DNA of 32,000 nucleotides from Comamonadaceae bacterium M7527 (GTDB lineage Bacteria; Pseudomonadota; Gammaproteobacteria; Burkholderiales; Burkholderiaceae_C), in the NCBI GenBank assembly GCA_021044545.1, contig CP087990.1, forward strand, positions 2,071,038 to 2,103,037, given 5' to 3'. Within the stretch, counting starts at the first letter, position 1. Every line of letters begins with the position of its first letter. A program made the translations under genes and the position numbers. This document shows positions 3,659-21,577 of the stretch, one piece after another. The notes beneath the pieces were generated by a model. That model worked only from the letters and a program-made list of their open reading frames with translations, ran no database searches and was not told the origin of the DNA.

Positions 3659-3734
3659 GGCCCGGTAGCTCAGTTGGTAGAGCAGCGGATTGAAAATCCG
3701 CGTGTCGATGGTTCGATTCCGTCCCAGGCCACCA
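3659..3734 (+). tRNA. tRNA-Phe (anticodon GAA), 76 nt including encoded CCA
   Basis: Cloverleaf folded by hand: acceptor GGCCCGG/CCAGGCC (one C-A mismatch at 5:68), D arm GCTC-AGTTGGTA-GAGC, anticodon arm GCGGA-TTGAAAA-TCCGC, variable loop GTGTC, T arm GATGG-TTCGATT-CCGTC, then ACCA. Very similar to E. coli tRNA-Phe. Confidence 0.93.
3690..3734 (+). repeat. attL: 45-bp core repeat (anticodon loop to CCA of tRNA-Phe)
   Basis: The exact 45-mer ttgaaaatccgcgtgtcgatggttcgattccgtcccaggccacca recurs at 12610..12654 and 21528..21572. Identity stops exactly at the base 5' of ttgaaaa. Confidence 0.9.
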
Positions 3735-3740
3735 AATACT

Positions 3741-3775
3741 CACCGTAGTCTTGCAAAAGGCTACGGTGTTTTTGT
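3741..3775 (+). terminator. Island-borne rho-independent terminator directly after the reconstituted tRNA-Phe
   Basis: Stem caccgtagtc / ggctacggtg (8 Watson-Crick pairs, one G-U, one more pair), loop ttgcaaaa, followed by ttttt. Confidence 0.7.
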
Positions 3776-3812
3776 TTGTGCATCTCATTCTGCTAGTGCT
3801 GTGCAGTAGACG

Positions 3813-5021
3813 ATGCACAAGCTAGCCAACACTCACCATTGCACACCAACCACCACCATTCGCTTGCGTGACGGTGAGCTAGTCATTTACAAACGCAGCC
3901 GCAGCTTGCAGTACCAATGTCGCTACAAGCTAAGCGACGGCACTTGGACAAGAGCTAGCACTGGCAAAGCAGCTCTGGAGCACGCCATTGCTCGCGCATG
4001 TGATATCTACGATGAATCACGCTATCGACAGCGTCTTGGTTTAGCACACCGTGCACACTCTGTTGCACAGATTGCAGCTGTTTGCTGTGCTGAGCTACGG
4101 CAGCAGATAGATGCAAAAGGCAAGAAGACTGCGCTCAACGACTACTTGAGCATCATCGAGCGTTACTTTGTGCCTTACTTTGGCGAACGCTTGCTTGAAT
4201 CATTGACGCACACAGACATACGTGAGTTTGAGCTGTGGCGCGATAGGCCGCTGTCTAGAGCTCCAAAGACAAGCACGCTCAACAATTTCACAAGTGCTTG
4301 GAGCAGATTGACTGCAGTAGCTGTAGAGCGAGGCTACATCAGTGAGCGAGTACCACTGCCAAAGCCCACAAGCAAGGGCATGAAGGGCACTACACGAGCA
4401 GCATTCAGCGGCGACGAGATGACTGCACTGCTAGCGTTTATGGAGCAGTGGTGCAAGCAAGGTGTCAAAGCTGTTCAGCGTGAAATTCGCCCTTTGCTGC
4501 GCGACTATGTAGAGCTGCTGCTGTTTACTGGCATGAGGCACGGCACAGAGGCGATGAACATACGTTGGCGCGACATAGAGTGGCACACAAAGGATGGTGT
4601 GCGCTACTTGCGCATACACGTGAGTGGCAAAACTGGCAGCAGATGGTTGATTGCCAAACACGCAGCCGTCCATGCGCTGCAACGGCTGCACGCTAGACAA
4701 AGGGATGTTTGTGAGATGTCGTTTGAAACCCTGTTTGCAGCGCGAGTGCAACAACTGCTGTTCAGATACAGCGATGGACATCAGCCACACAGCTTGGTTG
4801 GCACGTTTCGCAAGCTGATGCGTGACAGTGGCATGCTCAAGAACACACAAGGGCAGAGTCGCACGCTGTACTCAATACGCCATACCTACGCCACGCTTGC
4901 ACTGTTGGAGGGTAGTGCAGACATACACACACTCAGCAAGCAGCTTGGCAACAGTGCAGCGATGATTGAGAGGCACTACAGCAAGCTCACAGCGACTATG
5001 GCAGCTGAGAAGTTGGCTTGA
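3813..5021 (+). CDS. Tyrosine recombinase / integrase, 402 aa (allele 1)
   Basis: Catalytic signature: Arg in LFTGMRHGTE, H-x-x-R in SIRHTYATLAL, Tyr in MIERHYSKL. Position is immediately next to the tRNA att site. Confidence 0.9.
   Translation: MHKLANTHHCTPTTTIRLRDGELVIYKRSRSLQYQCRYKLSDGTWTRASTGKAALEHAIARACDIYDESRYRQRLGLAHRAHSVAQIAAVCCAELRQQIDAKGKKTALNDYLSIIERYFVPYFGERLLESLTHTDIREFELWRDRPLSRAPKTSTLNNFTSAWSRLTAVAVERGYISERVPLPKPTSKGMKGTTRAAFSGDEMTALLAFMEQWCKQGVKAVQREIRPLLRDYVELLLFTGMRHGTEAMNIRWRDIEWHTKDGVRYLRIHVSGKTGSRWLIAKHAAVHALQRLHARQRDVCEMSFETLFAARVQQLLFRYSDGHQPHSLVGTFRKLMRDSGMLKNTQGQSRTLYSIRHTYATLALLEGSADIHTLSKQLGNSAAMIERHYSKLTATMAAEKLA
4717..4731 (+). promoter_or_regulatory. Motif site M5 (degenerate): tgtcgtttgaaaccc, inside int
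   Basis: 13/15 match to M1. Confidence 0.3.
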
Positions 5022-5024
5022 AGC

Positions 5025-5040
5025 TGTCGTTTAAAACCAC
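5025..5040 (+). promoter_or_regulatory. Motif site M1: tgtcgtttaaaaccac (TGTCGTTTNAAACSAC family)
   Basis: The 17-mer ctgtcgtttaaaaccac is identical at 5024..5040 and 7409..7425. Lies between the stop codons of int and the wHTH gene. Confidence 0.6.
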
Positions 5041-5044
5041 AACT

Positions 5045-5362
5045 CTAAGACGATCCTTCAAGCTGCTTCAAGTACTGGCGCACTTGGATAACACCGCGTT
5101 TGCTCAGACAGTAGTACTTCGCACGCTTGTCATGTCCATGTTGACGCTCTATGAGCTCAAGGCGCTCCAAGCGTTCCACGCTTCGCTTGAGTGTTGGCAA
5201 GGATGATTGGCACATCACATTTAAAGACTTGAGCATGAGCGCAGACGGATGAACGCGAAACAGTTCAAGCAGAACTGTTAACTCGTCACGTCTACTGACT
5301 GCCAAAACGCTTCGTTCAAACGATTGCGCTGACAAAACTCTTGCAGCTGTCTCAAAAAACAT
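5045..5362 (-). CDS. Small winged-helix (MarR/ArsR-like) DNA-binding protein, 105 aa
   Basis: LPTLKRSVERLERLELIERQHGHDKRAKYYCLSKRG looks like a recognition helix plus wing. Convergent with int and divergent from the micropeptide/Wzz-like operon across an AT-rich spacer. Confidence 0.6.
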   Translation of the reverse strand: MFFETAARVLSAQSFERSVLAVSRRDELTVLLELFRVHPSALMLKSLNVMCQSSLPTLKRSVERLERLELIERQHGHDKRAKYYCLSKRGVIQVRQYLKQLEGSS

Positions 5363-5542
5363 GCTGCGATGATGCAGTCATTTCATGGTCAAAGTAAAAA
5401 CTAAATGCAAAAACAGTATTTCAATAAAAAACAAAACGTTAAAAGATTTTTATGCTGATACATCACTGTTTTCGGCGCTAAATATTGCTAGACGCTATGT
5501 TTACGAGCTTACGCTAGGCGCTGTTTTTAGAACGACTTAGCA

Positions 5543-5656
5543 ATGAAAAAAATCAAATTTACCTTTGGAGCAAAGCTCGCTCTTGTGTCTGCTGTTGTTG
5601 GTTTTGGTGCCTCAGTGTTCTTTCTAATAAAAGAGATCACTAGAGGTATGGCATGA
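5543..5656 (+). CDS. 37-aa single-pass membrane micropeptide (MKKIKFTFGAKLALVSAVVGFGASVFFLIKEITRGMA), below the ORF-track size cut-off
   Basis: Translated by hand. Basic N-terminus, roughly 20-residue hydrophobic helix, short polar tail. Its TGA overlaps the ATG of the 514-aa gene (ATGA at 5653..5656). No clear SD, but the upstream region is AT-rich. Confidence 0.5.
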   Translation: MKKIKFTFGAKLALVSAVVGFGASVFFLIKEITRGMA

Positions 5657-7197
5657 ACGAGCAGCGATTTGAGTCTTCAGACGAAATTGATCTAGGTAGG
5701 TTCTTTACTAACCTTTGGAGTAAACGGCTAGTCGTTGTTGTGTTTGTGGTTCTTGGCTTTGCTGTTGGTGGTGTGCAAGGACTCTTTTCGCAAGCAAGCT
5801 CATTCACCAACACGGTTGCTACTGTGCATGTCAAGCTGAACTTCAAAGGTGCAGAGCTTGGCGAGTATCCAAACGGCTCCAAGTACGCACCAACAGATGT
5901 GATTGCGAGCAAAGTGCTCTCAAGGGTGTATCGAGCAAACAGCCTGGATGACTACGACATTGAGTTGGAGGAGTTTGTATCTGCAGTCAACGCTTATCCG
6001 TGGATACCTAACCAAGCTGCAATGGACGCTAAGTACGCGGATCTTTTTAGTGAAAAAAAGCTAAGCGCACTTGATCGTCAAAAATTGGATGAGCAGTATC
6101 AACAAGAAACACGAAACAGCAATGGCAGATTTTTGATGCTGCAGTGGAGTGGAGACTCAGCTGCAAAAGTGTCCAAAGCGGTTGCACAGAAAGTGTTGGC
6201 AGATATTCCTAAGCAGTGGGCTTCTGTGAGTATTCAAGAGTACGGCGTGTTGGATCTTGAGGTTGTAGTGCCAAGCAAGTTGGATCAGTATCTACTTGAT
6301 ACTGCTGAGTACATCGTCGTTGGTGACTACCTACGCGACTTTGCGAGACAATTAAAAGTGGCTGCACTTGCGTTACAGCAAGATGCTGTCGTAGCAGTTT
6401 TAAAAGACGAACAAACTCAAAGCACAGTTGGTGATGTTGGCAAGCTCATACTGAACTTAGAAAACTTTCACTTGAGTACGCTGCAGCGAACGTTCCTCAT
6501 TGCGCCGCCACGATCTAACGCTGAGGCGGCAAGTTTGTACTTGAGCAGTCGACAACGAGAGTTAGAAGAAAAAATTGCAGAAGCCGAGCGCAAGTCTGAC
6601 GTGATCAATCGCGTCTACCGCGAGTACACGGACAGTGCTGAGACGAAGTCGGCGAGTACTCAAAATGCTGCAGACAAAAATGGCAATTTATCGCCTCAAA
6701 TTGGCGACGACTTCTTGACAAAACTTATGCGTATTGGCGACGAACTATCTGATGCGAAGTACAAGCAAGACTTGCTGAAGGAGCGCAAAGAGTTGTCTTT
6801 TGAAGCCGCTGAGCTTGCAACTGAAAAGCAGCGTATTGAAGCTATTGTTGATGCATTGAGCCAGCCGCGCAGCGTGCAAGTTATCAGTAATCGTGAGGCA
6901 CTAGACAAGAGCGTTAGCTACGTGGTGTCTGAGCTCTCAAACTATGCACAGACATTGGACAGAATCAATCTTATGGCACGTGCTGCAAAGCTAGGGAAAG
7001 TTGGCTCGTTGTACGAAGTCATCAGAGCGCCACAAGTGAGCAGTAGCAGCGTTGATGCGCTAAAAGCTGCGGTGAAGAATGCGTTGTTTGGTTTGCTTGG
7101 TGGTTTGTTTCTTGGAATATTCGTAGCGTTTATTCGCGTTGTGTTGCAAGAGGCACGCTCGCCAAAGTCGTCATCAAACCATGTCGTTGCTGTGTAG
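5653..7197 (+). CDS. Wzz / polysaccharide co-polymerase (PCP)-like two-TM protein with a long coiled-coil periplasmic domain, 514 aa
   Basis: N-terminus SSDEIDLGRFFTNLWSKRLVVVVFVVLGFAVGG matches the classic Wzz N-terminal motif plus TM1. C-terminal APQVSSSS...ALFGLLGGLFLGIFVAFIRVVL is a Pro/Ser segment plus Gly-rich TM2. The region between them is rich in E/K/Q heptad-like sequence. AGAGG lies 6 nt before the ATG. Confidence 0.7.
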   Translation: MNEQRFESSDEIDLGRFFTNLWSKRLVVVVFVVLGFAVGGVQGLFSQASSFTNTVATVHVKLNFKGAELGEYPNGSKYAPTDVIASKVLSRVYRANSLDDYDIELEEFVSAVNAYPWIPNQAAMDAKYADLFSEKKLSALDRQKLDEQYQQETRNSNGRFLMLQWSGDSAAKVSKAVAQKVLADIPKQWASVSIQEYGVLDLEVVVPSKLDQYLLDTAEYIVVGDYLRDFARQLKVAALALQQDAVVAVLKDEQTQSTVGDVGKLILNLENFHLSTLQRTFLIAPPRSNAEAASLYLSSRQRELEEKIAEAERKSDVINRVYREYTDSAETKSASTQNAADKNGNLSPQIGDDFLTKLMRIGDELSDAKYKQDLLKERKELSFEAAELATEKQRIEAIVDALSQPRSVQVISNREALDKSVSYVVSELSNYAQTLDRINLMARAAKLGKVGSLYEVIRAPQVSSSSVDALKAAVKNALFGLLGGLFLGIFVAFIRVVLQEARSPKSSSNHVVAV

Positions 7198-7214
7198 CGT
7201 GCCAAAGTCCAAAT

Positions 7215-7248
7215 AAAAAGCCACTAGTGTTGAGCTAGTGGCTTTTTT
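7215..7248. terminator. Bidirectional rho-independent terminator between the convergent Wzz-like and AAA+ genes
   Basis: aaaaagccactag - tgttgag - ctagtggcttttt: a 13-bp perfect stem with A-run and T-run flanks. Confidence 0.8.
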
Positions 7249-7263
7249 GTTGTCTGACTAGGA

Positions 7264-7971
7264 CTACTTGCTAGCAGCTTGTTTGATGCTGTTGAGTGCT
7301 GCTCTCGCAGCTGCATTGCCGCGCTGCACTTTTAGCATCAAACGCTGCAAGCTGAACATCACATTCCTAAACGAGCCATTGTTGCCACTGATGGCAGCTA
7401 ACAGTTGACTGTCGTTTAAAACCACTTCTGCATCGCTTGCCATGCGTCGAGCGATTGGCAAAAACTCAGCATCTGCTGCTGCGTTCATCTCTATCAACAC
7501 GCATCTATCCTTCAAACCCTTGTCTAACGCTGCGATGTTGTTGGTGGTGAGGATGAACACAGCACGCTTGTTGTTGAGCACTGTTTTCATGCTGCCTTGT
7601 GCGAGCTTGCTCAAGTTATCCACCTCATCAAAAATCAAGTAGTGCAAACCACTCGCATTCAAAGATTGCACGTTCATCATCTTTTTCACAGACTCCATAA
7701 TCGTCGTGTTTGTATGCCCTTGCTGACAGCCAAAAAACTCAGCCTCCATTGCCAACGTGTCTTGTGTCTTGCCAAATTCGATAGCAGAAGGTAGCAAGCG
7801 TGCAAGCGTTGTCTTACCACTGCCAAATGTGCCATACAGCAAAATGCCACTCTTGCCTTCGTATGGAAAAGGTAAGCTGCCACTGACAATGTCTTCAATC
7901 AGTTCGCGTGATTCGTCGTTTCCAAAGACAATTTCGTCGATGGTGGTAGGGGTATATTCAAATTTGTTCAT
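7264..7971 (-). CDS. Clamp-loader (RFC small subunit / T4 gp44 / RarA)-like AAA+ ATPase, 235 aa, lacking most of a collar domain
   Basis: YTPTTIDEIVFGNDESRELIEDIV, then Walker A LLYGTFGSGKTTLARLL, Walker B YLIFDEVDNLSKLAQ, sensor-1 FILTTNN, and KDRCVLIEM in the position of the RFC SRC arginine-finger motif. Collinear by eye with T4 gp44. Confidence 0.75.
   Translation of the reverse strand: MNKFEYTPTTIDEIVFGNDESRELIEDIVSGSLPFPYEGKSGILLYGTFGSGKTTLARLLPSAIEFGKTQDTLAMEAEFFGCQQGHTNTTIMESVKKMMNVQSLNASGLHYLIFDEVDNLSKLAQGSMKTVLNNKRAVFILTTNNIAALDKGLKDRCVLIEMNAAADAEFLPIARRMASDAEVVLNDSQLLAAISGNNGSFRNVMFSLQRLMLKVQRGNAAARAALNSIKQAASK
7410..7425 (+). promoter_or_regulatory. Motif site M2: tgtcgtttaaaaccac, inside the AAA+ gene
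   Basis: Exact 17-nt match with M1. Confidence 0.6.
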
Positions 7972-8009
7972 GTTTGTCTTTCGTTTGTTGATTTGTTGGT
8001 TGGTTATGT

Positions 8010-8735
8010 TTAAGCTGCTAGCTTGAAAGCTTCAGCGTTTTCGCTGTACATCGACAGCAGTGCAGCGTTCAGTGCAGTCGCTGAGCGAACGATTGACTTG
8101 ATTGCAAAGCTGCCATCTGCTTGCTGCTCTGCAATCAGCACACACTCTTCGCCAACATAGTTGCTGTCGCTCATTTCACTCAGCTGTTTAGAGCTAACGC
8201 TTCCAAGTATTGGCATGCTTGAGATATGTTCTTGCATCATTTCTGCTTTGATTTTTGGACTGATGTACGTGGCACTCTTTGACAAGCGAACTTCTTGTAT
8301 GCCACCACGCTGTTCAATCCAATCTGCCAAAGCACTTGGCAATACACCTTCCTTCTGTGCACTTCGCAGCACAAGCGAGTACGTGCTAACACGTCGTCTG
8401 TCTACATCGCCAAATACTGCTTTAACGATACGTGTCATCAGTGGACTTTCACGTTTAACGACTAGCTTGCGTTCCTTTAAAAACGCTTGCAGTTCATTGG
8501 CACGCTGCTTCGCAGCAGACACCTCCAAAGGAGCTCCATAAGACAAGCAGTCAGCAAGTACGCTATACAGCTGTTGGTTGCTTGTGCGAAAAGCGTTGTT
8601 TTGCCATTGCGTGCGTTTGTTCTCCATTGCTTGCAGTGAAGCTGCAGCTGTCATGTCAAATGCTGCCTCATTGGTAGCTGTTGCTGAAGTGTGTGTGTCG
8701 TTTGAAACGACAGCTGATTTGGTGGTAACTTGCAT
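8010..8735 (-). CDS. Unknown 241-aa protein, first gene of the operon with the AAA+ ATPase
   Basis: Long ORF with protein-like composition. ATG at 8735 is preceded by GGAG with a 6-nt spacing (the ORF-track start at 8747 is a TTG). There is a 38-nt gap to the ATPase gene. I recognise no family. Confidence 0.65.
   Translation of the reverse strand: MQVTTKSAVVSNDTHTSATATNEAAFDMTAAASLQAMENKRTQWQNNAFRTSNQQLYSVLADCLSYGAPLEVSAAKQRANELQAFLKERKLVVKRESPLMTRIVKAVFGDVDRRRVSTYSLVLRSAQKEGVLPSALADWIEQRGGIQEVRLSKSATYISPKIKAEMMQEHISSMPILGSVSSKQLSEMSDSNYVGEECVLIAEQQADGSFAIKSIVRSATALNAALLSMYSENAEAFKLAA
8696..8712. promoter_or_regulatory. Motif site M4: tgtcgtttgaaacgaca, a perfect 8+1+8 palindrome near the 5' end of the 241-aa gene
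   Basis: Read directly from the sequence. Sits 24-40 nt inside the ORF from the ATG at 8735. Confidence 0.6.
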
Positions 8736-8836
8736 AAAAATCTCCAAAATATCGTGTAAAAAATTATCGTTTGCATTATTGCTTGCGATGTAATAATTAT
8801 ATTAAAATCAACGTTTTACAGCCATAAACGTCTTAC

Positions 8837-9613
8837 GTGCTAGTATTAGATGTTAAGAATATGAGAAGATATTTTTCAGCACCAACTCCACGCTTTGGTA
8901 AGCAAAGCAGTCGTTTGTCGATTGGTAATCAGCAGCGCAGCCCTTACTATTGGTGGTGGCAGTACTTGCGTCGTAACGCTGACTACATAGCGTGCTGTGA
9001 GCGTGGTGGCAAAGGTAAGCTTGCAAAGCTCTACGCTGACTTTGGTGACGTTCGAAACGACAACTTCCACGAGTGGTGGACAAGTAACGATAGGGGAGTA
9101 ACGCTATTCGCTGAGCAACATTTGGCAGTGCGTTTTGGCGAGTTGGCAAGCGCTGAGCAGTGGCAAGCTAGTTGGCACGCTGATGATGTGCTTGTGGTGG
9201 CTGTACCTTTGGAGATGAGCAAGCGTTCTATCAAGTCTGCGTTCGGCAAGCTATTAGATAAACGACACACAGACGTTAAACGTGGACGTCCATCTATTGC
9301 AAAGCTGAAAGAACACAGTACTGCTCTATATGCGCTAGAGCGCAACTACACCATTAATGGTTTGCAAAACACATTGGCTGTTTATGACTTGTGGATAGAC
9401 AATCAAGCACGCAGCAAAGCAGATAAATTGGCACTGTGGCAAATAGCTGCAGAGCTGAAGCTAAACAGAGCTGCAATCAAAGACGCGACGAGTGACGATA
9501 GTGGCGATAGATTGAGTGGACGTAACACGCTTGGGGCTACTGTGCACCGCTATGTCACGCAAGCCAAGCGCATCATTGGCAATACAGCAAAGGGCAAGTT
9601 CCCCTTGTCGTAG
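8837..9613 (+). CDS. 258-aa protein with W-rich xxLRRNxxY motif (transcriptional-regulator-like domain, DUF6499/FseA-like); true start may be the ATG at 8861
   Basis: RSPYYWWWQYLRRNADYIACCE resembles the W-x-EFLRRNP-x-Y signature of the N-terminal domain of FseA-type ICE activators (from memory). Divergent from the 241-aa/AAA+ operon across an AT-rich spacer. The 8837 start is a GTG. Confidence 0.55.
   Translation: MLVLDVKNMRRYFSAPTPRFGKQSSRLSIGNQQRSPYYWWWQYLRRNADYIACCERGGKGKLAKLYADFGDVRNDNFHEWWTSNDRGVTLFAEQHLAVRFGELASAEQWQASWHADDVLVVAVPLEMSKRSIKSAFGKLLDKRHTDVKRGRPSIAKLKEHSTALYALERNYTINGLQNTLAVYDLWIDNQARSKADKLALWQIAAELKLNRAAIKDATSDDSGDRLSGRNTLGATVHRYVTQAKRIIGNTAKGKFPLS
9046..9062. promoter_or_regulatory. 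Motif site M7: tgacgttcgaaacgaca (15/17 match to M4), inside the 258-aa gene
   Basis: Read directly from the sequence. Confidence 0.4.
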
Positions 9614-9616
9614 CTG

Positions 9617-9632
9617 TGTCGTTTTAAACCAC
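9617..9632 (+). promoter_or_regulatory. Motif site M3: tgtcgttttaaaccac, between the 258-aa gene stop and the short recombinase stop
   Basis: 15/16 identical to M1/M2. Lies 3 nt from the recombinase gene's 3' end. Confidence 0.55.
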
Positions 9633-9634
9633 GC

Positions 9635-10207
9635 TCAAACCAACTCGACAGCTCTGCGCTTCACATCATCATTGACAGTGATGTAACGCTGTGTGGTTGC
9701 AATGCTCTTGTGACCAGCAAGTGAAGCAAGCACAAACACGCTGACACCTTGACTTGCGAGTGACGTTAAAAACGTCTTGCGTCCACTGTGACTGCTTGCA
9801 CCTTTGATGCCAGCAGCTTTGAACAACCAGTAAAAGTGCTGTGACAGCACGTTGGCGCTGAATCCCTTGCGTGCACCACTGTAAGTTGTGAACAGTGCTT
9901 GCTCCTCCTCGTACCACTTGCGCGAGTTGATGTAGCACTGCAGTTCCTCTTGCAGTCGTGTGCTCACATACACAGTGCGTGCATGGTTGTGTTTGACGCG
10001 GTGAGCACCTAGATATATTTCTGCTCGAACCGTGCCGTTCGCATCGCGTACATCACACAGCTTCAAGTCTGCCACCTCGCTCACACGCAAACCACTCATC
10101 ACCATCATCAACAGCATCGCTCTATCGCGTGCTGCAAACTTGCGTGTGCTGATGTAGTCGAGTGTGTGCGCAAGTTCCGCGCTGGTTAGTGATTTAGCTG
10201 CAGCCAT
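9635..10207 (-). CDS. Short (190 aa) catalytic-domain-only tyrosine recombinase, FimB/FimE-sized
   Basis: Arg in MSGLRVSEVADL, H-x-x-R in SSHSGRKTFLT, H..Y in LAGHKSIATTQRYITV. GAGGAA SD lies 6 nt before the ATG. Confidence 0.8.
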   Translation of the reverse strand: MAAAKSLTSAELAHTLDYISTRKFAARDRAMLLMMVMSGLRVSEVADLKLCDVRDANGTVRAEIYLGAHRVKHNHARTVYVSTRLQEELQCYINSRKWYEEEQALFTTYSGARKGFSANVLSQHFYWLFKAAGIKGASSHSGRKTFLTSLASQGVSVFVLASLAGHKSIATTQRYITVNDDVKRRAVELV

Positions 10208-10617
10208 TTGTGTTCCTCAAAGATTTTCAGTGTTGTTAGTGTGTTTTCATTGCCAGTGTTTGAGCAACCAAGTCCGTTCAATTTGGCGGTGCTTTGATGA
10301 GTTGTAGGTTTTCAACGCACTAGCACTTGGTTCACGAACTTTGTGTGTTCTCTTTGGCTGTGTATTTAGCTGAACGCTGCTGCGCTCTGCAAGCGTTTTG
10401 ATATATGTGCTGCTGCTCAGCTCTTCATGCACCTCTTTTATGCGCTTAGACGAAGGATTTGACGTGTTTGCGTGTTGTGCTCGCTGTGCTCACAAATTCA
10501 TCTGCAGCTCAAATATTTCTGCTGCGCAAAAAGTTGCGGTGAAGTACTTACAGAAGTGAGGTGGTGATTTGCACTCGGTGCTGTTTGTGAAGTGCTTACA
10601 CTTCATTGGCAAGTAAG

Positions 10618-10635
10618 AGCAAGCAGCTGCTTGCT
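10618..10635. repeat. 18-bp perfect palindrome AGCAAGCAGCTGCTTGCT in the low-coding region
   Basis: Read directly from the sequence. Overlaps a second palindrome, TGCTAGCA. Preceded by the hairpin gaagtg-ctta-cacttc (10589..10604) and the direct repeat gaagtacttaca / gaagtgcttaca (10541 and 10589). Confidence 0.7.
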
Positions 10636-11001
10636 AGCAGTTCGCTCGTCGCTCTCTGCTGTGCTCTTCTGTCTTTTGACATGACTGTTTTGGAAATGTT
10701 TCGAGCAAACGACGGCTATGTCGCACAGTGTGCGAACAGTAGCTGTCGTTGTAGTCTGTTCCGTATAAAGTCCGTCGCAGTACAAGCATGAGTGAGTTTG
10801 ACGGAAGACGTATGTATTAAAACTTCCAAACTGCTTCAGCATTGGTTTGCTTTGCAGATACTCAGCGGCACTCTCGTTCTACACAGCCTTCATGCCAACT
10901 GTGTAGTGATTGCAAAGTCATTAGCCGTCATATTTCCCTTTGCGTTTTTAGCCTTTGATAGCGCAGTGCTTTATCTGCGTGGTGTTGCCTTGGTGTTTGC
11001 C

Positions 11002-11355
11002 TTAGTGTTTGTTCTGTCTGTGCTGCCTGAACAATCGCTTGTTAGCTCGTGTGCAGATGTTGAGCACTTGGTAGGCACGCTTGTCGCTCAGTCGCGCTCG
11101 TTTGCGTTTGTTCTGGATGCACTTGAGGTAGTCGCCGAGTACCGTAGCTTGCTTACTGTCTATAAGCTCAAGCTGCGCATGCTCTGCGTGAATGCCAAGT
11201 GTTCGCTTCGCAGCTGCTTGTGCTTTAAGGAGTAGTGCGTCTGTCGTTGCAAACGTCGCTGCAGCTAAGCCTCTTTGCTTTAGCCACGCATCAGTTGCTT
11301 CAGTGTCACGCAATGCACTTACTCGAATTTGATATTGCTGTTCTTGTTTGTTCAT
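11002..11355 (-). CDS. Possible ribbon-helix-helix-like small DNA-binding protein, 117 aa from the second ATG
   Basis: YQIRVSALRDTEATDAWLKQRGLAAATFATTDALLLKA has a strand-helix-helix pattern, followed by a basic C-terminus. Composition is far more protein-like than the antisense 147-aa ORF. No clear SD. Confidence 0.4.
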   Translation of the reverse strand: MNKQEQQYQIRVSALRDTEATDAWLKQRGLAAATFATTDALLLKAQAAAKRTLGIHAEHAQLELIDSKQATVLGDYLKCIQNKRKRARLSDKRAYQVLNICTRANKRLFRQHRQNKH

Positions 11356-11420
11356 GCAAGTATTTAGCATCTGCCAAACAAAACCTTGGCGAAACTGAAG
11401 CGTTGTTTGGCAATAAGTGC

Positions 11421-11440
11421 TGCAGTGCAGTGCAGTGCAT
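11421..11440. repeat. Pentanucleotide tract (TGCAG)x3 plus TGCAT, flanked by the inverted repeat aagtgc / gcactt (11415..11451)
   Basis: Read directly from the sequence. Lies in the divergent spacer between the RHH-like gene and the 146-aa gene. Confidence 0.7.
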
Positions 11441-11536
11441 GTGTGGCACTTTGACGCTCATCGCCTTTTTCGGTTGCTCAAGTTGTGGTGGTGACAACAC
11501 ACTAGCTGTATTGCAACTGCATAGGAACACAGCAAC

Positions 11537-11977
11537 ATGACAGCAACACTTGGCACTCTAAAGCTCACAGCAGCACAAAAGCCCTCGCACGTAACTCCAA
11601 TACAGCAGCGACGCAACAAACTGGCGAAGCGTTTGTTCGAGCAAGCTGAGTTGGCGAAAGCCCAACAACTCGGCTCAACATACAAACCAATCAAGTTCAA
11701 GACTGTTACGGACGCAGATGGTATGCGAAAGCAAGTGGAGCAGTACAAGACAGTGAAGGCGTGGTGGTTTACGGCAGACAACGGTAAGTTGGCACTGAGC
11801 GTGCGCTACGGTACAAAAGTGCTTGAGCTAGCAAAAGGCAGGTGGAGCGTTGAGGTAGCAAGCACACAAGAGCTTGTGCCAACGTTAGAGCTGATTAAAG
11901 CTGCGGTGCTAAACGGTGAGCTAGATGCTGCAATCGATGTTGCATCAGACAAATTGAAGCTTGGCTTTAAGCGTTGA
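11537..11977 (+). CDS. Hypothetical 146-aa protein
   Basis: Clean ORF with AGGAA 9 nt upstream of the ATG and balanced composition. No family recognised. Confidence 0.6.
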   Translation: MTATLGTLKLTAAQKPSHVTPIQQRRNKLAKRLFEQAELAKAQQLGSTYKPIKFKTVTDADGMRKQVEQYKTVKAWWFTADNGKLALSVRYGTKVLELAKGRWSVEVASTQELVPTLELIKAAVLNGELDAAIDVASDKLKLGFKR

Positions 11978-12038
11978 TGCAAGCGATGCAATCAAAGTCG
12001 CTCTGTAGATTGTCTTGTGCTGCGTTGATAAATACTCC

Positions 12039-12365
12039 ATGCAGTACAAGGAATTCAAAACGACATCACAGAGCGCAGCGCAATCAAAGCCAGCTTCGTC
12101 TAGCAGTGATGCTGCCAGCAACACAAAGCAAGGCAGCAAGCAGCGTGCAGCCAAGCGTGCACGCACTACTGCAAAGACACAAACGCTTGCGCAGATGCGC
12201 ATTCAGCATTTGCAAGACAAAGTCAAACACGCAAAGGCTGAGCTTGCGGCAGAGATTGCAGCGCAGCGTTTGGCGCTATCCAACAAGCAGCGTGAGCAAA
12301 AGCGTAGAGCACTACAGAGGCAGAGTCTGCAAGCTGTACAAGCTGCGAAGCGTGAGCAAGACTAA
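12039..12365 (+). CDS. Basic Lys/Gln/Ala-rich coiled-coil protein, 108 aa from the ATG at 12039
   Basis: QRAAKRARTTAKTQTLAQMRIQHLQDKVKHAKAELAAEIAAQRLALSNKQREQKRRALQRQ. It is the last gene before the att junction. Unit 2 has a 2-bp deletion that removes only the last 4 codons. Confidence 0.5.
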   Translation: MQYKEFKTTSQSAAQSKPASSSSDAASNTKQGSKQRAAKRARTTAKTQTLAQMRIQHLQDKVKHAKAELAAEIAAQRLALSNKQREQKRRALQRQSLQAVQAAKREQD

Positions 12366-12609
12366 GTGTCTTTCAAAACGTCACTTGCACAACCGTAGCA
12401 AAACCGCTGATAGCTGCACAGTTACGCTCAAGCAGCTTGTGCAGCTTAGACACGCTAGTGCAGTGCTGAGAGGCATAGTGCAAATGGTGCGAGCGCAGCA
12501 GCAGTGTGCTAAATGTTTTGTAGAAAAAACGTTGCAGAATTTCGCACACCAATCTGTTCCAAAGCAAAATCCAGTTGAAAAATTTAACTCTTTCGCACTC
12601 TTGTCAGCG

Positions 12610-12654
12610 TTGAAAATCCGCGTGTCGATGGTTCGATTCCGTCCCAGGCCACCA
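12610..12654 (+). repeat. Internal att (attP-like junction): 45-bp partial tRNA-Phe 3' copy between the two units
   Basis: Exact copy of 3690..3734. It lacks the 5' 31 nt of the tRNA, so it is not a functional tRNA gene. Confidence 0.9.
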
Positions 12655-12660
12655 AATATT

Positions 12661-12695
12661 CACCGTAGTCTTGCAAAAGACTACGGTGTTTTTGT
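12661..12695 (+). terminator. Copy of the island-borne terminator; the G-U pair of unit 1 is an A-U pair here
   Basis: caccgtagtc ttgcaaaa gactacggtg ttttt. Confidence 0.65.
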
Positions 12696-12732
12696 TTGTG
12701 CATCTCATTCTGCTAGTGCTGCGCAGTAGACG

Positions 12733-13941
12733 ATGCACAAGCTAGCCAACACTCACCACTGCACACTAACCACCACCATTCGCTTGCGTGATGGTGAGCT
12801 TGTCATCTACAAACGCAGCCGCAGCTTGCAGTACCAATGTCGCTACAAGCTAAGCGACGGAACTTGGACAAGAGCTAGCACTGGCAAAGCAGCTCTAGAA
12901 CATGCCATTGCTCGCGCATGTGATATCTACGATGAATCACGCTATCGACAGCGTCTTGGTTTAGCACACCGTGCACACTCTGTTGCACAGATTGCAGCTG
13001 TTTGCTGTGCTGAGCTGCGGCAGCAGATAGACGCAAAAGGCAAGAAGACTGCGCTCAACGATTACTTGAGCATCATCGAGCGCTACTTTGTGCCGTACTT
13101 TGGCGAACGCTTGTTTGAATCATTGACGCACACAGACATACGCGAGTTTGAGCTGTGGCGAGATAGACGGCTGTCTAGGGCACCAAAGACAAGCACGCTC
13201 AACACTTTCACAAGTGCTTGGAGCAGATTGACTGCAACAGCTGTAGAGCGTGGCTACATCAGTGAGCGAGTACCACTGCCAAAACTCACAAGCAAGGGCA
13301 TGAAGGGCACTACACGAGCAGCATTCAGTGGCGACGAGATGACGGCACTGCTGGCGTTTATGGAGCAGTGGTGCACACAAGGTGTCAAAGCCGTAGAGCG
13401 TGAAATTCGCCCTTTGCTGCGTGACTACGTGGAGCTGCTGCTTTTTACTGGCATGAGGCACGGCACAGAGGCGATGAACATACGTTGGCGCGACATAGAG
13501 TGGCACACAAAGGATGGTGTGCGTTACTTGCGCATACACGTGAGTGGCAAAACTGGCAGCAGATGGTTGATTGCCAAACACGCAGCCGTCCATGCGCTGC
13601 AACGGCTGCACGCTAGACAAAGGGATGTTTGTGAGATGTCGTTTGAAACCCTGTTTGCAGCGCGAGTGCAACAACTGCTGTTCAGATACAGCGATGGACA
13701 TCAGCCACACAGCTTGGTTGGCACGTTTCGCAAGCTGATGCGTGACAGTGGCATGCTCAAGAACACACAAGGGCAGAGTCGCACGCTGTACTCAATACGC
13801 CATACCTACGCCACGCTTGCACTGTTGGAGGGTAGTGCAGACATACACACACTCAGCAAGCAGCTTGGCAACAGTGCAGCGATGATTGAGAGGCACTACA
13901 GCAAGCTCACAGCGACTATGGCAGCTGAGAAGTTGGCTTGA
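12733..13941 (+). CDS. Tyrosine recombinase / integrase, 402 aa (allele 2; 8 amino-acid differences from allele 1, all in the first 221 residues)
   Basis: Same catalytic motifs as allele 1. Differences read from the ORF track: P11L, L128F, P145R, N157T, V168T, P184L, K214T, Q221E. Confidence 0.9.
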   Translation: MHKLANTHHCTLTTTIRLRDGELVIYKRSRSLQYQCRYKLSDGTWTRASTGKAALEHAIARACDIYDESRYRQRLGLAHRAHSVAQIAAVCCAELRQQIDAKGKKTALNDYLSIIERYFVPYFGERLFESLTHTDIREFELWRDRRLSRAPKTSTLNTFTSAWSRLTATAVERGYISERVPLPKLTSKGMKGTTRAAFSGDEMTALLAFMEQWCTQGVKAVEREIRPLLRDYVELLLFTGMRHGTEAMNIRWRDIEWHTKDGVRYLRIHVSGKTGSRWLIAKHAAVHALQRLHARQRDVCEMSFETLFAARVQQLLFRYSDGHQPHSLVGTFRKLMRDSGMLKNTQGQSRTLYSIRHTYATLALLEGSADIHTLSKQLGNSAAMIERHYSKLTATMAAEKLA

Positions 13942-20456: not shown

Positions 20457-20897
20457 ATGACAGCAACACTTGGCACTCTAAAGCTCACAGCAGCACAAAA
20501 GCCCTCGCACGTAACTCCAATACAGCAGCGACGCAACAAACTGGCGAAGCGTTTGTTCGAGCAAGCTGAGTTGGCGAAAGCCCAACAACTCGGCTCAACA
20601 TACAAACCAATCAAGTTCAAGACTGTTACGGACGCAGATGGTATGCGAAAGCAAGTGGAGCAGTACAAGACAGTGAAGGCGTGGTGGTTTACGGCAGACA
20701 ACGGTAAGTTGGCACTGAGCGTGCGCTACGGTACAAAAGTGCTTGAGCTAGCAAAAGGCAGGTGGAGCGTTGAGGTAGCAAGCACACAAGAGCTTGTGCC
20801 AACGTTAGAGCTGATTAAAGCTGCGGTGCTAAACGGTGAGCTAGATGCTGCAATCGATGTTGCATCAGACAAATTGAAGCTTGGCTTTAAGCGTTGA
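20457..20897 (+). CDS. Hypothetical 146-aa protein (copy 2)
   Basis: Identical translation to 11537..11977. Confidence 0.6.
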   Translation: MTATLGTLKLTAAQKPSHVTPIQQRRNKLAKRLFEQAELAKAQQLGSTYKPIKFKTVTDADGMRKQVEQYKTVKAWWFTADNGKLALSVRYGTKVLELAKGRWSVEVASTQELVPTLELIKAAVLNGELDAAIDVASDKLKLGFKR

Positions 20898-20958
20898 TGC
20901 AAGCGATGCAATCAAAGTCGCTCTGTAGATTGTCTTGTGCTGCGTTGATAAATACTCC

Positions 20959-21273
20959 ATGCAGTACAAGGAATTCAAAACGACATCACAGAGCGCAGCG
21001 CAATCAAAGCCAGCTTCGTCTAGCAGTGATGCTGCCAGCAACACAAAGCAAGGCAGCAAGCAGCGTGCAGCCAAGCGTGCACGCACTACTGCAAAGACAC
21101 AAACGCTTGCGCAGATGCGCATTCAGCATTTGCAAGACAAAGTCAAACACGCAAAGGCTGAGCTTGCGGCAGAGATTGCAGCGCAGCGTTTGGCGCTATC
21201 CAACAAGCAGCGTGAGCAAAAGCGTAGAGCACTACAGAGGCAGAGTCTGCAAGCTGTACAAGCTGCGAAGTGA
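20959..21273 (+). CDS. Basic coiled-coil protein (copy 2), 4 residues shorter because of the 2-bp deletion
   Basis: Ends ...QAVQAAK, versus ...QAVQAAKREQD in unit 1. Confidence 0.5.
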   Translation: MQYKEFKTTSQSAAQSKPASSSSDAASNTKQGSKQRAAKRARTTAKTQTLAQMRIQHLQDKVKHAKAELAAEIAAQRLALSNKQREQKRRALQRQSLQAVQAAK

Positions 21274-21527
21274 GCAAGACTAAGTGTCTTTCAAAACGTC
21301 ACTTGCACAACCGTAGCAAAACCGCTGATAGCTGCACAGTTACGCTCAAGCAGCTTGTGCAGCTTAGACACGCTAGTGCAGTGCTGAGAGGCATAGTGCA
21401 AATGGTGCGAGCGCAGCAGCAGTGTGCTAAATGTTTTGTAGAAAAAACGTTGCAGAATTTCGCACACCAATCTGTTCCAAAGCAAAATCCAGTTGAAAAA
21501 TTTAACTCTTTCGCACTCTTGTCAGCG

Positions 21528-21572
21528 TTGAAAATCCGCGTGTCGATGGTTCGATTCCGTCCCAGGCCACCA
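21528..21572 (+). repeat. attR: 45-bp partial tRNA-Phe 3' copy, followed by native flanking DNA
   Basis: Exact copy of 3690..3734. The sequence after CCA (agttcaaaagcccc...) differs from the island sequence (aatactcaccg...). Confidence 0.9.
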
Positions 21573-21577
21573 AGTTC

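Follow-up and report, generated by a model that had tools for sequence, protein, structure and literature searches.

Palindromes at gene-block borders in tandem tRNA-Phe islands point to a putative new gene-shuffling system

Two tandem islands at a tRNA-Phe gene

The window, a 32,000-nucleotide stretch of Comamonadaceae bacterium M7527 DNA, contains two tandem island units at a tRNA-Phe gene, with an offset of 8920 nt between them (Table 1). Sequence identity between attL and attR begins in the anticodon loop at 3690, and a palindrome scan found the anticodon arm, GCGGA-TTGAAAA-TCCGC (3685-3701), to be a 5+7+5 dyad itself. The integrase copy of unit 2 (12733-13941) shows 5% divergence over its 5' two-thirds. 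The units belong to a widespread but undescribed group of small, mobile tRNA-integrating islands of freshwater Burkholderiales (Polynucleobacter, Limnohabitans, Dechloromonas and others), for which 40 related loci, designated by L numbers, define a core of integrase, AAA+ ATPase, p241, p250, short recombinase (srec) and DUF6641 genes.

The AAA+ protein was assigned on matches to Pfam AAA (2e-8), PHROG 168 (1.5e-23) and NCBIfam RFC (1e-12), and its gene always adjoins that of p241. Matches to Pfam Phage_integrase (1e-26) and Xer-like proteins in PDB identify srec, which is 41–65% conserved across the family. Neither p241 (260 homologues; 1012 clusters at 50% identity) nor p250 (412 homologues) has a recognizable DNA-binding fold: p241 had no match in Pfam, PDB or BFVD, and p250 had none in Pfam or, by sequence and fold, in PDB. 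The p250 gene had initially been labeled FseA-like, a label we dropped after finding no DUF6499/DUF2285 or other Pfam match in 25 homologues. It had also been taken as the far end of a 4.6-kb cargo block starting at the wHTH gene, yet the AAA+, 241-aa and 250-aa genes proved to be conserved family core, leaving only the segment at about 5041-7260 variable. Of the 40 related loci, the window alone has the cargo genes of this segment, and L072 diverges from the window beyond 7215.

Table 1. Genes, att cores and dyad sites of the islands, in window coordinates.
Feature	Position	Strand	Remarks
tRNA-Phe(GAA)	3659..3734	+	integration target; ARAGORN, Rfam
attL core	3690..3735	+	46-bp 3' half of tRNA-Phe; repeats at 12610-12655, 21528-21573
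Tyrosine integrase, 402 aa	3813..5021	+	core; PHROG integrase 4e-31; homologues in related loci
Site 1 TGTCGTTTGAAACCCTG	4717..4733	+	within integrase gene; left half perfect, right half weak
Site 2 TGTCGTTTAAAACCACA	5025..5041	+	4 nt past integrase stop, between convergent integrase and wHTH genes
Variable cargo	5045..7260	.	
wHTH, 105 aa	5045-5362	-	variable cargo
Transmembrane peptide, 37 aa	5544-5657		variable cargo
514-aa protein	5653-7197		variable cargo; weak Wzz N-terminal match (Pfam)
Bidirectional terminator	7215-7247		terminator scan
AAA+ ATPase, 235 aa	7264..7971	-	core; clamp-loader/RFC-like
Site 3 TGTCGTTTAAAACCACT	7410..7426	+	codons 183-187 (VVLND) of AAA+ gene
Site 4 TGTCTTTGGAAACGACG	7914..7930	-	minus-strand reading; codons ~15-19 (VFGND) of AAA+ gene
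p241, 241 aa	8010..8735	-	core; no known domain
Site 5 TGTCGTTTGAAACGACA	8696..8712	.	codons ~10-14 (VVSND) of p241
p250, 250 aa	8861..9613	+	core; no known domain
Site 6 TGACGTTCGAAACGACA	9046..9062	+	codons 63-67 (DVRND) of p250
Site 7 TGTCGTTTTAAACCACG	9617..9633	+	convergent spacer, 4 nt past p250 stop, 2 nt before recombinase stop
srec, tyrosine recombinase, 190 aa	9635..10207	-	core; catalytic domain only
Site 8 TGACGTTAAAAACGTCT	9761..9777	+	weak; 3' part of recombinase gene
Small protein, 122 aa (about 117 aa)	11002..11370	-	basic C-terminus; conserved in L072
Site 9 TGTCGTTGCAAACGTCG	11242..11258	+	weak; within 122-aa small-protein gene
DUF6641 protein, 146 aa	11537..11977	+	core; Pfam 4e-15; in 28 loci
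Site 10 TGTCTTTCAAAACGTCA	12367..12383	+	weak; 227 bp before att core
att core, unit 1-unit 2 junction	12610..12655	+	
Unit 2 sites 1-9, 17 bp each	13637, 13945, 16330, 16834, 17616, 17966, 18537, 18681, 20162		offset 8920
Unit 2 site 10, 17 bp	21285 (to 21301)		offset 8918
attR core, right end of unit 2	21528..21573	+	

A 17-bp dyad specific to the islands

A 17-bp dyad, TGTCGTTTNAAACGACA, of the general form nGTC-N9-GACn, occurs about ten times per 8.9-kb island, and the tandem arrangement doubles every site. The initial annotation had described at least six dispersed copies per unit; all of its sites were found at their positions, those at 9617-9632, 9046-9062 and 4717-4731 reading as described, and the count rises to ten with the weaker copies. 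A search with the pattern TGTCGTTTNAAACSAC, allowing at most 2 mismatches, yielded 26 strand-matches in the window, every one within the two units; shuffles gave an expectation of 0.23 and never more than 3. No match at this threshold was found in the 14 kb of host flanks, where the initial annotation had not noticed the motif either. A set of 80 related Comamonadaceae/Burkholderiales loci, 861 kb in total, was likewise free of it, against 8 positions in one island unit; outside the islands the exact 17-mer occurs as chance-level singletons only. The sites are specific to the islands. A chance repeat or a generic host motif, equally frequent genome-wide, would have only the short length of the motif in its favor; it is refuted by the match counts, is further opposed by the conservation of site positions in the 40 related loci, and retains a negligible probability.

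Across the family, the motif recurs as a dyad of the form nGTC-N9-GACn with an A/T-rich center, of which the window's islands carry their own version. Related islands carry 4–11 dyads per locus at conserved positions, in lineage-specific variants A–F that all keep GTC-N9-GAC, and the perfect class-A palindrome was found in more than 120 stretches, mostly from Polynucleobacter and often with 2–3 copies per 8 kb. In the window, the copy at 8696-8712 is a perfect palindrome. The 17-mer CTGTCGTTTAAAACCAC is identical at 5024-5040 and 7409-7425, and these direct repeats flank the window's only variable segment, site 2 forming its left border. The asymmetric CCAC sites share one direction, as had been proposed, and keep their asymmetry in relatives 84–91% identical. 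Many positions are filled in other loci as well: the one past the integrase stop (site 2) in L041, L042 and L038, the codon position of site 3 in L043, L051 and L072, and the p250 stop (site 7) in L032, L038, L041-L047, L049, L051, L053 and L068. The offset of site 6 is also filled in L046, this site being retained in L072-L073 and L202, while site 10, located downstream of the final island gene's stop codon (unit 2 reading), has counterparts past the last core gene in L036, L043, L050 and L051.

Selection, gene borders and homology breakpoints

Comparison with relatives 84–91% identical indicates that the sites are under selection as DNA. Three intragenic sites together accumulated 1/408 substitutions against a background of 12.5%, with 1/68 positions diverged at site 3 and 0/170 substitutions in close relatives at each of sites 4 and 5. 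Site 5, located 165 bp upstream of the p250 ATG, keeps its position across site classes in the unconserved N-terminal tail of p241, and the peptide shifts in step with the local palindrome variant (VVLND, VVQND, VLLKD, VQQLD, IVFHD); a peptide that varies over DNA that remains palindromic shows that the DNA is what selection acts on.

Family-wide, the sites lie mainly at gene or operon borders. Intergenic positions account for 86% of 256 sites, against 23% non-coding DNA, so that the initial description of the motif as mostly intragenic holds for the window (7/10 sites) but not for the family. Gene 3' ends and convergent spacers are favored over promoters: the rate per spacer is 58/103 for convergent, 98/325 for tandem and 11/103 for divergent spacers, and many sites fall 0–20 nt past a stop codon, whereas at distances below 10 nt ahead of a start there are none. 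This placement would suit small hairpins recognized by structure, either in single-stranded DNA, as attC-like folded sites during transfer or replication, or in RNA, as 3'-end stem-loops that stabilize or terminate transcripts. Class differences are indeed compensatory on both arms (e.g. G5/C13 to C5/G13), and perfect copies form a stem of modest stability (-8 to -10.5 kcal/mol, z -1.5 to -2.9). However, the window's three strongest sites, CCAC variants, show no folding advantage over shuffles (-2.1 to -4.6 kcal/mol, z ~0) and are nevertheless conserved in relatives. Sites are not followed by a U-tract and look quite different from the true terminators nearby (7215-7247 and the att-adjacent hairpins), an Rfam search returned no family match, and a structure-only signal would not require the sites of a locus to share one sequence class. 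We consider the hairpin explanation improbable.

In comparisons between related islands, the sites are the points where homology begins and ends. Among HSPs of at least 300 bp and at least 80% identity, 26 ends fell in the 4-bp bin at +8..+11, the outer edge of the palindrome, against 0.95 expected; these represent about 14 distinct junction pairs, and the counts include non-independent loci. For example, L145 and L184 are 99% identical up to a site and unrelated beyond it, and L186 and L195 are 98% identical up to a site. A single site in L144 joins two modules that each have other partners elsewhere, and L091 and L123 have in common a 427-bp module with sites on both sides. Variant bases within the palindrome segregate with their own flank in L096/L144 and L186/L195, which places the exchange near the center. 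Depending on the locus, the srec-DUF6641 module precedes or follows the AAA-p241-p250 block, and sites mark the joints; the p241-p250 junction is never broken despite the site in between. Indels between close relatives start exactly at a site, with a site at one end only, and the relatives provided no clean case of an empty site in one and site-insert-site in another. The island itself showed no circle, deletion or inversion, its only additional metagenome contig being collinear. Overall, palindromes at the borders of seemingly swapped blocks point to a new gene-shuffling system.

Candidate roles and closest known systems

The distribution of sites follows two core genes: of 26 loci that have p241 and the AAA+ gene, 21 contain sites, and none of the 8 loci lacking both does, although these eight retain p250, srec and DUF6641. 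Such co-occurrence would fit an operator set, the main rival reading, bound by a dimeric DNA-binding protein that the island encodes, p241 being the likeliest. It would act as a global regulator in the manner of KorA/KorB, control its own gene through the site near the start of its coding sequence and, at operon ends, serve as roadblock or insulator; breakpoints at sites would then be by-products of rare homologous or illegitimate exchange between short identical repeats. In every class the whole half-sites are palindromic, with GTC and GAC 12 bp apart, and the copy 23–39 nt inside the p241 gene is conserved and adjoins a divergent AT-rich promoter region. Core-associated sites within a locus are of one class (B in L036, A in L041), and among the core proteins of these two loci p241 has diverged the most (58.7% identical). 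On the other hand, the sites avoid promoter-type locations and often directly follow stops, they are abundant in cargo far from the core genes, p241 shows no detectable HTH, RHH or ParB domain, and Pfam identified no ParB/KorB-type protein among the island proteins. The sharp pile-up at the palindrome edge and single sites common to two modules also speak against operators. The KorB-like role put forward initially accordingly keeps its dyad, its p241 copy and its co-occurrence, loses ground on the 3'-end bias and the missing protein family, and is possible but doubtful.

The same annotation had offered a dispersed centromere or parS-like set and replication iterons. Centromere-like (parS-type) or replication-origin sites would serve the excised circular island with the AAA+ protein and p241 as partition or initiator pair. 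Palindromes scattered in this way, some of them within genes, are reminiscent of KorB OB sites or chromosomal parS, the AAA+ protein resembles clamp loaders and initiators, and the perfect palindrome adjoins a very AT-rich stretch (8748-8860). Nevertheless, no ParA, ParB or Rep domain was found in the island proteins, the sites as a set are neither clustered nor direct repeats and run through kilobases of cargo in tandem arrays, and the breakpoints would be left unexplained. We regard this role as highly unlikely, and iterons do not fit dispersed palindromes and an island with no Rep protein.

Recombination sites, used by srec to delete or swap the cargo block, had also been suggested. The cargo block did not stand, and srec as the enzyme is called into question by L033, L034 and L052, which have srec and no sites, and by L068, which has sites and no srec; that srec and sites each occur apart from the other speaks against a recombination reading. 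Recombination sites as such are supported because homology breaks at the palindromes and modules with differing neighbors share a single site, and we give roughly an even chance to the sites being crossover or joining points at which a recombination system encoded by the island shuffles gene modules. Such a site-specific system would swap, insert, delete and invert modules, its sites working like attC in integrons or pdif in the dif modules of Acinetobacter. The geometry would fit the core site of a tyrosine recombinase, with 5-bp arms containing the invariant GTC/GAC and a 7-bp A/T-rich center, a layout seen also in the integrase target, and lineage-specific centers (TTTWAAA, ATTWAAT, TGTTACA, AGTTGCT and others) may define heterospecific site classes. 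With its catalytic domain only, srec would be the most likely catalyst; p241, by its co-occurrence with the sites the best candidate for the site-binding factor, would with its AAA+ partner be the likeliest to recognize or assemble the sites, and the copy in the 5' end of its gene may also serve autoregulation. Further observations run counter to recombination: the island showed no recombination product, the relatives gave no clean empty-site pair and have indels with a site at one end only, and the p241-p250 junction stays intact. Neither p241 nor p250 has a recognizable DNA-binding fold, and p241 identity does not track site class cleanly, the L041 and L043 proteins being only 55% identical though both loci are class A. 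In addition, palindromic symmetry of the full 8-bp half-sites is a need of a dimeric DNA-binding protein and not of a crossover region, and 17-bp identical repeats could seed rare homologous or illegitimate exchange without a dedicated enzyme.

Four known systems come closest to the island sites. IncP-1 plasmids carry KorB/KorA operator sets, with 12 OB sites (13-bp palindromes), read by an element-encoded protein with a partner. The islands likewise have an element-specific short palindrome dispersed along their entire length, with some copies intragenic and others far from promoters, but lack a KorB/ParB-family protein, and their sites favor gene 3' ends over promoters and coincide with mosaic junctions. 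The att cores that tyrosine integrases use in tRNA arms resemble the dyads in their 5-bp inverted arms and 7-bp center, which is anticodon-arm geometry, and this island's integrase uses the anticodon arm; the arms differ (TGTCG versus GCGGA), however, and the dyads are island-internal rather than terminal, with no evident arm-type sites around them. Integrons shuffle gene cassettes between attI and attC sites by means of a platform-encoded tyrosine recombinase, IntI; attC sites are imperfect palindromes of 57–141 bp recognized as folded single strands, and the cassettes are co-oriented and promoterless. Sites at gene 3' ends and a platform-encoded tyrosine recombinase are common to both, and in Polynucleobacter islands a composite site adjoins the platform end with solitary sites farther along. 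In contrast to integrons, island sites are 17-bp double-strand-type dyads, genes occur in both orientations, and the recombinase lacks IntI-specific features (34 bits against a cut-off of 265 for the integron-integrase model). Island sites have no similarity to dif.

Finally, Acinetobacter plasmids harbor dif modules bounded by pdif (XerC/XerD) sites (PMC13141974, PMC6449649). The pdif site is 28 bp long (11+6+11) and the island site 17 bp (about 5+7+5), dif modules reside on plasmids and rely on host XerCD, and the islands are tRNA-integrated and chromosomal and encode their own short recombinase and two novel proteins. In both systems, nevertheless, many short dyad-like sites are scattered along a mobile replicon where accessory modules begin and end, one module can recur in different contexts via a single shared site, and modules lie in either orientation, a likeness in which recombination of the islands is inferred from sequence comparison.

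Motif and island structure in the window

Every site of the 17-bp palindromic motif (nGTC-N9-GACn) listed in the initial annotation was recovered at its position, and ten sites are present per island unit when weaker copies are counted. Searching with TGTCGTTTNAAACSAC and allowing up to 2 mismatches, we obtained 26 strand-matches in the window against 0.23 expected, all within the islands. None were found in 14 kb of window flanks or in 861 kb surrounding the homologue of the flanking gene, taken from 80 related genomes of Comamonadaceae/Burkholderiales. These counts show a real motif that is far above chance and island-specific; a chance repeat is excluded, as is a host motif equally frequent genome-wide, which the initial annotation had allowed for. 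The exact 17-mer CTGTCGTTTAAAACCAC occurred only as chance singletons in 185k genomes, a collection without the window's own species, and a search for the spacing variants N8, N10, N11 and N12 returned essentially none.

The two islands (8.9 kb each) stand in tandem downstream of a tRNA-Phe gene, with a G+C content of 0.45-0.50 versus 0.58-0.62 in the flanks. Each has genes for an integrase (402 aa), a clamp-loader-like AAA+ ATPase (235 aa), p241 (241 aa), the divergent p250 (250 aa), srec (190 aa; a tyrosine recombinase reduced to its catalytic domain) and a DUF6641 protein, together with a variable segment, small genes and one further small gene that comes last. The variable segment is the sole variable cargo, and no defence system was matched in it by PADLOC. 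Identity between units is complete over 4605-12350 (7.7 kb), while approximately 40 positions (5%) differ between 3739-4604 and 12659-13524, a stretch that takes in the att-proximal region and the integrase gene's 5' two-thirds. The boundary of this divergence (~4604) does not coincide with any site. A 2-bp indel also converts the last gene of unit 2 into a longer read-through ORF in unit 1. The pattern suggests either tandem integration of two related elements followed by homogenisation, or a recombinant.

Four intragenic sites, distributed over three proteins, all encode V/D-x-x-N-D, indicating that GTC...AAC GAC was repeatedly fitted into one reading frame. One of the small genes encodes a protein of ~117 aa with a strongly basic C-terminus, which could be a further DNA-binding candidate; it is kept in an 84%-identical relative (L072) and weakly in three other loci (L046, L057 and L063), and is not conserved in Polynucleobacter islands.

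Coordinates and sequences of features in the window and in related loci (L numbers)
Feature	Locus	Position	Detail
tRNA-Phe gene	window	3659-3734	followed by two tandem island copies
tRNA-Phe anticodon arm	window	3685-3701	GCGGATTGAAAATCCGC (GCGGA-TTGAAAA-TCCGC)
46-bp 3' half of tRNA	window	3690-3735; 12610-12655; 21528-21573	three copies bounding the islands
Integrase gene	window	3813-5021 (+)	402 aa
Variable cargo	window	5045-7260	105-aa winged-helix (wHTH) protein; 37-aa transmembrane peptide; 514-aa protein with weak Wzz-like N-terminal transmembrane segment
Strong bidirectional terminator	window	7215-7247	in variable cargo
AAA+ ATPase gene	window	7264-7971 (-)	235 aa
p241 gene	window	8010-8735 (-)	241 aa
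p250 gene	window	8861-9613 (+)	250 aa
srec gene	window	9635-10207 (-)	190 aa
Small basic-protein gene	window	11002-11370 (-)	~117 aa
Last gene, unit 1	window	11974-12729	251-aa read-through ORF
2-bp indel	window	12351-12357	
Last gene, unit 2	window	20894-21283	129 aa
Intragenic site, p241	window	8696-8712	VVSND
Intragenic sites, AAA+	window	7410-7426; 7914-7930	VVLND and VFGND
Intragenic site, p250	window	9046-9062	DVRND
Class A site			TGTCGTTTWAAACGACA
Class B site			YGTCCTTTWAAAGGACR
Class C site			CGTCGATTWAATCGACG
Class D site			CGTCCAGTTGCTGGACG
Class E site			TGTCGTGTTACACGACA
Class F site			GCGTCSAWAAAATCGACGC; A-rich centre, Limnohabitans-type islands
p241 N-tail VVLND			GTCGTTTTAAACGAC
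p241 N-tail VVQND			GTCGTTCAAAACGAC
p241 N-tail VLLKD			GTCCTTTTAAAGGAC
p241 N-tail VQQLD			GTCCAGCAACTGGAC
p241 N-tail IVFHD	L068		
Composite element	L036	14032-14094	
Composite element	L041	3119-3181	
Composite element	L043	5614-5676	
Composite element	L044	2821-2883	
Composite element	L045	11117-11221; 16978-17092; 20455-20569	
Composite element	L050	~1890-1960	
Composite element	L054	11337-11399	
tRNA-Phe 3' fragments with hairpin	L036	17380-20150	
tRNA-Phe 3' fragments with hairpin	L043	4223-5545; 14673-15540	
tRNA-Phe 3' fragments with hairpin	L050	1781-1839; 12742-12800; 13795-13853	

A family of freshwater islands and its site classes

In abundant freshwater bacteria such as Polynucleobacter, Limnohabitans and other Comamonadaceae, much of the diversity between strains has a main source in additive genomic islands beside tRNA genes. 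Homologues of p250 (n = 412) and p241 (n = 260) came nearly all from freshwater metagenomes, and the p241 family comprises ~1000 clusters at 50% identity. A locus search with the single p250 sequence returned nothing and an alignment query was required; with it we found 40 loci in Polynucleobacter, Limnohabitans, Polaromonas, Dechloromonas, Methylococcaceae, Oxalobacteraceae and others. The integrase, AAA+, p241, p250, srec and DUF6641 genes form the common core, and the wHTH and Wzz-like genes are found in the window only. The 4.6 kb from the wHTH gene to p250, initially annotated as a cargo block, thus consists mostly of conserved core. Nor did the initial label of p250 as FseA-like hold, as neither DUF6499, DUF2285 nor any other Pfam family matched the window protein or 24 homologues at E-values up to 1.

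Related loci carry 4-11 copies of the dyad in lineage-specific variants, which we grouped into classes A-F, so that the original observation is confirmed and generalised to an island family. Perfect class-A palindromes occur in >120 stretches of the 185k-genome collection, mostly in Polynucleobacter and often as 2-3 copies per 8 kb, and many of these stretches are cargo regions with no core gene within the same 8 kb. Sites in such cargo arrays would be left unexplained if the motif served as a centromere or origin, and the island encodes no ParA, ParB or Rep protein. Phages gave no match to the whole island by megablast, and p241 matched neither phages nor plasmids by tblastn. Searching the literature for DUF6641, the motif and Polynucleobacter islands, we found no description of the island family, the site, p241, p250 or DUF6641.

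Polynucleobacter loci contain repeated 3' fragments of tRNA-Phe, and an identical terminator hairpin follows each of them, indicating that these loci are long ("additive") series of islands and their remnants in tandem. Polynucleobacter islands also contain a conserved composite element, absent from the window, in which a conserved 29-bp spacer (AATCAATTAGACATCCCTGCGTCAGTCGA) separates a class-B palindrome from the class-A palindrome that follows it, sometimes with a class-C palindrome in between. Wherever att could be located (L041, L043, L045, L050 and L054), the element lies 70-150 bp inside a tRNA-Phe att fragment, where a tandem-array unit begins; it is possibly a docking site similar to attI, or belongs to the att arm. 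In another locus (L202, 1-7730; p241 62% identical), p250, p241 and AAA+ genes stand beside a different integrase (420 aa, Arm-DNA-bind_3) and a 110-aa gene adjoins p250 in place of srec, indicating that the core block is able to travel with other integration modules.

Site placement and breakpoints

Sites recur at the same positions across loci: just past the integrase stop, at or just past the AAA+ 3' end, inside the p241 5' end, just past the p250 stop and after DUF6641 or the last gene. Intergenic sites make up 86% of the total of 256 (at most 1 mismatch, in loci with two or more sites), against a non-coding share of only 23% of the DNA by the same ORF call. Convergent spacers harbor a site most often (58/103), followed by tandem (98/325) and divergent spacers (11/103); many sites lie 0-20 nt past a stop codon and none lies <10 nt ahead of a start. 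Placement is biased toward gene 3' ends and module borders, with no promoter bias and no polarity of the centre base relative to neighbouring genes. Hairpins or terminators are a weak explanation, intrinsic terminators being stable G+C-rich hairpins with a U-tract behind them: folding energies of the window's three strongest (CCAC) sites are -2.1 to -4.6 kcal/mol (z ~0), no better than those of shuffles, the sites have no U-tract or T-run, nearby true terminators differ, and a terminator scan picks other elements. An Rfam scan returned the tRNA only.

The p241 site allows a separate view of selection. In the p241 alignment, the first ~35 residues are unconserved except V10 and N12, which are kept because the palindrome falls in this N-tail, and the encoded peptide varies in step with the local palindrome class. 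Among ten metagenome contigs 84-91% identical to the window, substitutions numbered 0/170 and 1/68 in the AAA+ gene sites and 0/170 in the p241 site versus 12.5% outside sites, figures that are descriptive given the non-independence of the contigs. Contigs L072-L081 derive from the ENA ERZ2731xxxx set and JGI 3300025513. Selection on the sites acts on the DNA.

Breakpoints of homology were mapped by all-against-all blastn of ~170 loci (HSPs of at least 300 bp and at least 80% identity). HSP ends pile up at the outer edge of the palindrome, with 26 breakpoints (after collapsing) between +8 and +11 bp of the site centre, where 0.95 are expected, corresponding to about 14 distinct junction pairs. 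For example, L145 and L184 show 99% identity as far as the far edge of the palindrome and are unrelated right beyond it, and L186 and L195 (98% identical up to the site) follow the same pattern. In L144, one site connects a left module shared with L096 and L114 and a right module shared with L106 and L189, and L091 and L123 have in common a 427-bp module with sites at both ends in both genomes. Sharing of one site by two modules is predicted by exchange within the site and not by a private regulatory element per module. In the L096/L144 and L186/L195 pairs, variant palindrome bases go with their own flank, placing exchange near the palindrome centre. Indels between close relatives start exactly at a site, as in the 1004-bp insert that L053 has, relative to L049, right after the p250-stop site. 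Relative to the AAA-p241-p250 block, the srec-DUF6641 module can lie to the left or the right and in either orientation in different species, with sites at the joints; two orientations within one population were not seen. Pairs of an empty site and a site-insert-site arrangement were not found, and a metagenome scan with the AAA-internal site and its flank returned one collinear contig and no recombinant, so that no recombination product of the window island was seen. Two of the ten window-lineage contigs stop within 3 bp of the AAA-internal site (L073 at window position 7412, L080 at 7429). Breaks of this sort are common in assembly graphs when alternative joins coexist in a population, but the count is too small for significance.

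The main rival explanation is an operator set for p241. It accounts for the full-length dyad symmetry, the site within p241's own 5' end and the co-occurrence of sites with p241, but leaves the 3'-end bias and the breakpoint pile-up unexplained unless 17-bp repeats seed incidental exchange. The initial interpretation is partly supported: recombination at the sites, the best supported of the three roles proposed in the initial annotation, is the reading that we prefer on these comparative data, with an inferred mechanism. The block boundaries drawn there did not stand, and srec is a candidate enzyme.

Candidate machinery and comparison with known systems

Presence and absence of genes point to p241 and the AAA+ ATPase as the candidate site reader. 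Multi-copy dyads occur in 21/26 loci with both genes and in 0/8 adequately flanked loci without them, though p250, srec and DUF6641 are kept (e.g. L033, L034 and L052). Between L036 (class B) and L041 (class A), p241 is the most diverged core protein (58.7% identity, versus 79.8% for AAA+, 75.4% for p250, 80.7% for the integrase and 93.6% for srec). In L040, which has no A- or B-class sites, p250 and srec are of L036 type whereas p241 and AAA+ are of L049 type; the junction of this swap is not exactly at a site. Such co-variation of site class with p241 identity is suggestive and not clean; as L041 and L043 are both class A with p241 only 55% identical, we retain p241 as a candidate binder. 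No DNA-binding fold or domain was found in p241 or p250: AlphaFold models (pLDDT 71 and 82, respectively) had no Foldseek match in PDB or BFVD, PDB profile searches and Pfam scans of all alignment members gave nothing, and a HMMER search with p241 of 1.8 billion representatives returned single-domain relatives only.

As catalyst, the island encodes its own Xer-like catalytic domain in srec, which maintains 41-65% identity across all site classes. Some loci have srec without sites, and L068 has sites without srec. A conserved recombinase contacting the invariant GTC/GAC arms would reconcile these facts, and the class-specific centre would be a crossover region requiring a match between partner sites, or be read by p241. 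The integrase's own target offers a resemblance: the tRNA-Phe anticodon arm is a perfect 5+7+5 dyad, and the 17-mer can be read in the same geometry, as 5-bp arms around a 7-bp A/T-rich centre. Since attL/attR identity begins in the anticodon loop (3690), the integrase crossover region has the geometry of the dispersed motif, so that, by this analogy, 17 bp would not be too short for a tyrosine-recombinase core site.

We tentatively propose, as a possibility we hold to be rather unlikely in its full form, a gene-shuffling platform in tRNA-linked additive islands of freshwater Burkholderiales. Modules bounded by GTC-N9-GAC palindromes, whose 9-bp centres would define mutually heterospecific classes A-F, would be exchanged by a three-part machine in which a catalytic-domain-only tyrosine recombinase acts together with p241, as a novel site reader, and with the clamp-loader-like AAA+ ATPase. 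If true, this would be a previously unrecognised functional parallel to integrons and dif modules with a mechanism distinct from both. A short searchable site marking module borders would offer a handle for delimiting cassettes, a testable recombination mechanism and candidate functions for three large protein families without annotation; heterospecific site classes and a compact recombinase, if confirmed, could become genetic tools.

Several known systems bear comparison. Replication iterons are clustered direct repeats by a Rep gene and were rejected, since the sites are palindromic, spread over the whole 8.9 kb and unaccompanied by a Rep domain. KorB/ParB-type sets are similarly short, element-specific palindromes dispersed over the element, but KorB-type operator sets differ in site positions and in proteins; none of the ten island proteins matched the ParB/KorB family, which has a ParB N-terminal domain plus an HTH, in Pfam, PHROG or NCBIfam, and p241 and p250 had no fold match. 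FimB/FimE-type invertases (~200 aa), whose switch is a segment that inverts between inverted sites, resemble srec in size, and srec scored below the cut-offs of both models (NF007370, 36.7 bits versus 221; NF007371, 25.7 bits versus 222). Closest in function are integron cassettes and the dif modules of Acinetobacter plasmids (PMC13141974, PMC6449649). Integron attC sites measure ~57-141 bp, contain R''-L''/L'-R' boxes and mark the 3' ends of cassettes that share one orientation, whereas island sites are 17-bp dyads with neighbouring genes in both orientations; srec scored far below integron-integrase models (TIGR02249, 34.3 bits versus a cut-off of 265; NF011946, 15.8 versus 435) and has no N-terminal half altogether. 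The dif site spans 28 bp (11-bp XerC and XerD arms, 6-bp spacer), unlike the 17-bp GTC-N9-GAC site without dif-like arms; dif modules are recombined by host XerC/XerD. Site length, architecture and recombinase type thus rule out membership of either system. As with dif modules, the same module is found in different contexts with homology stopping at the site (L145/L184, L186/L195, L096/L144/L114 and L091/L123), and the sites are candidate module- or cassette-junction sites.
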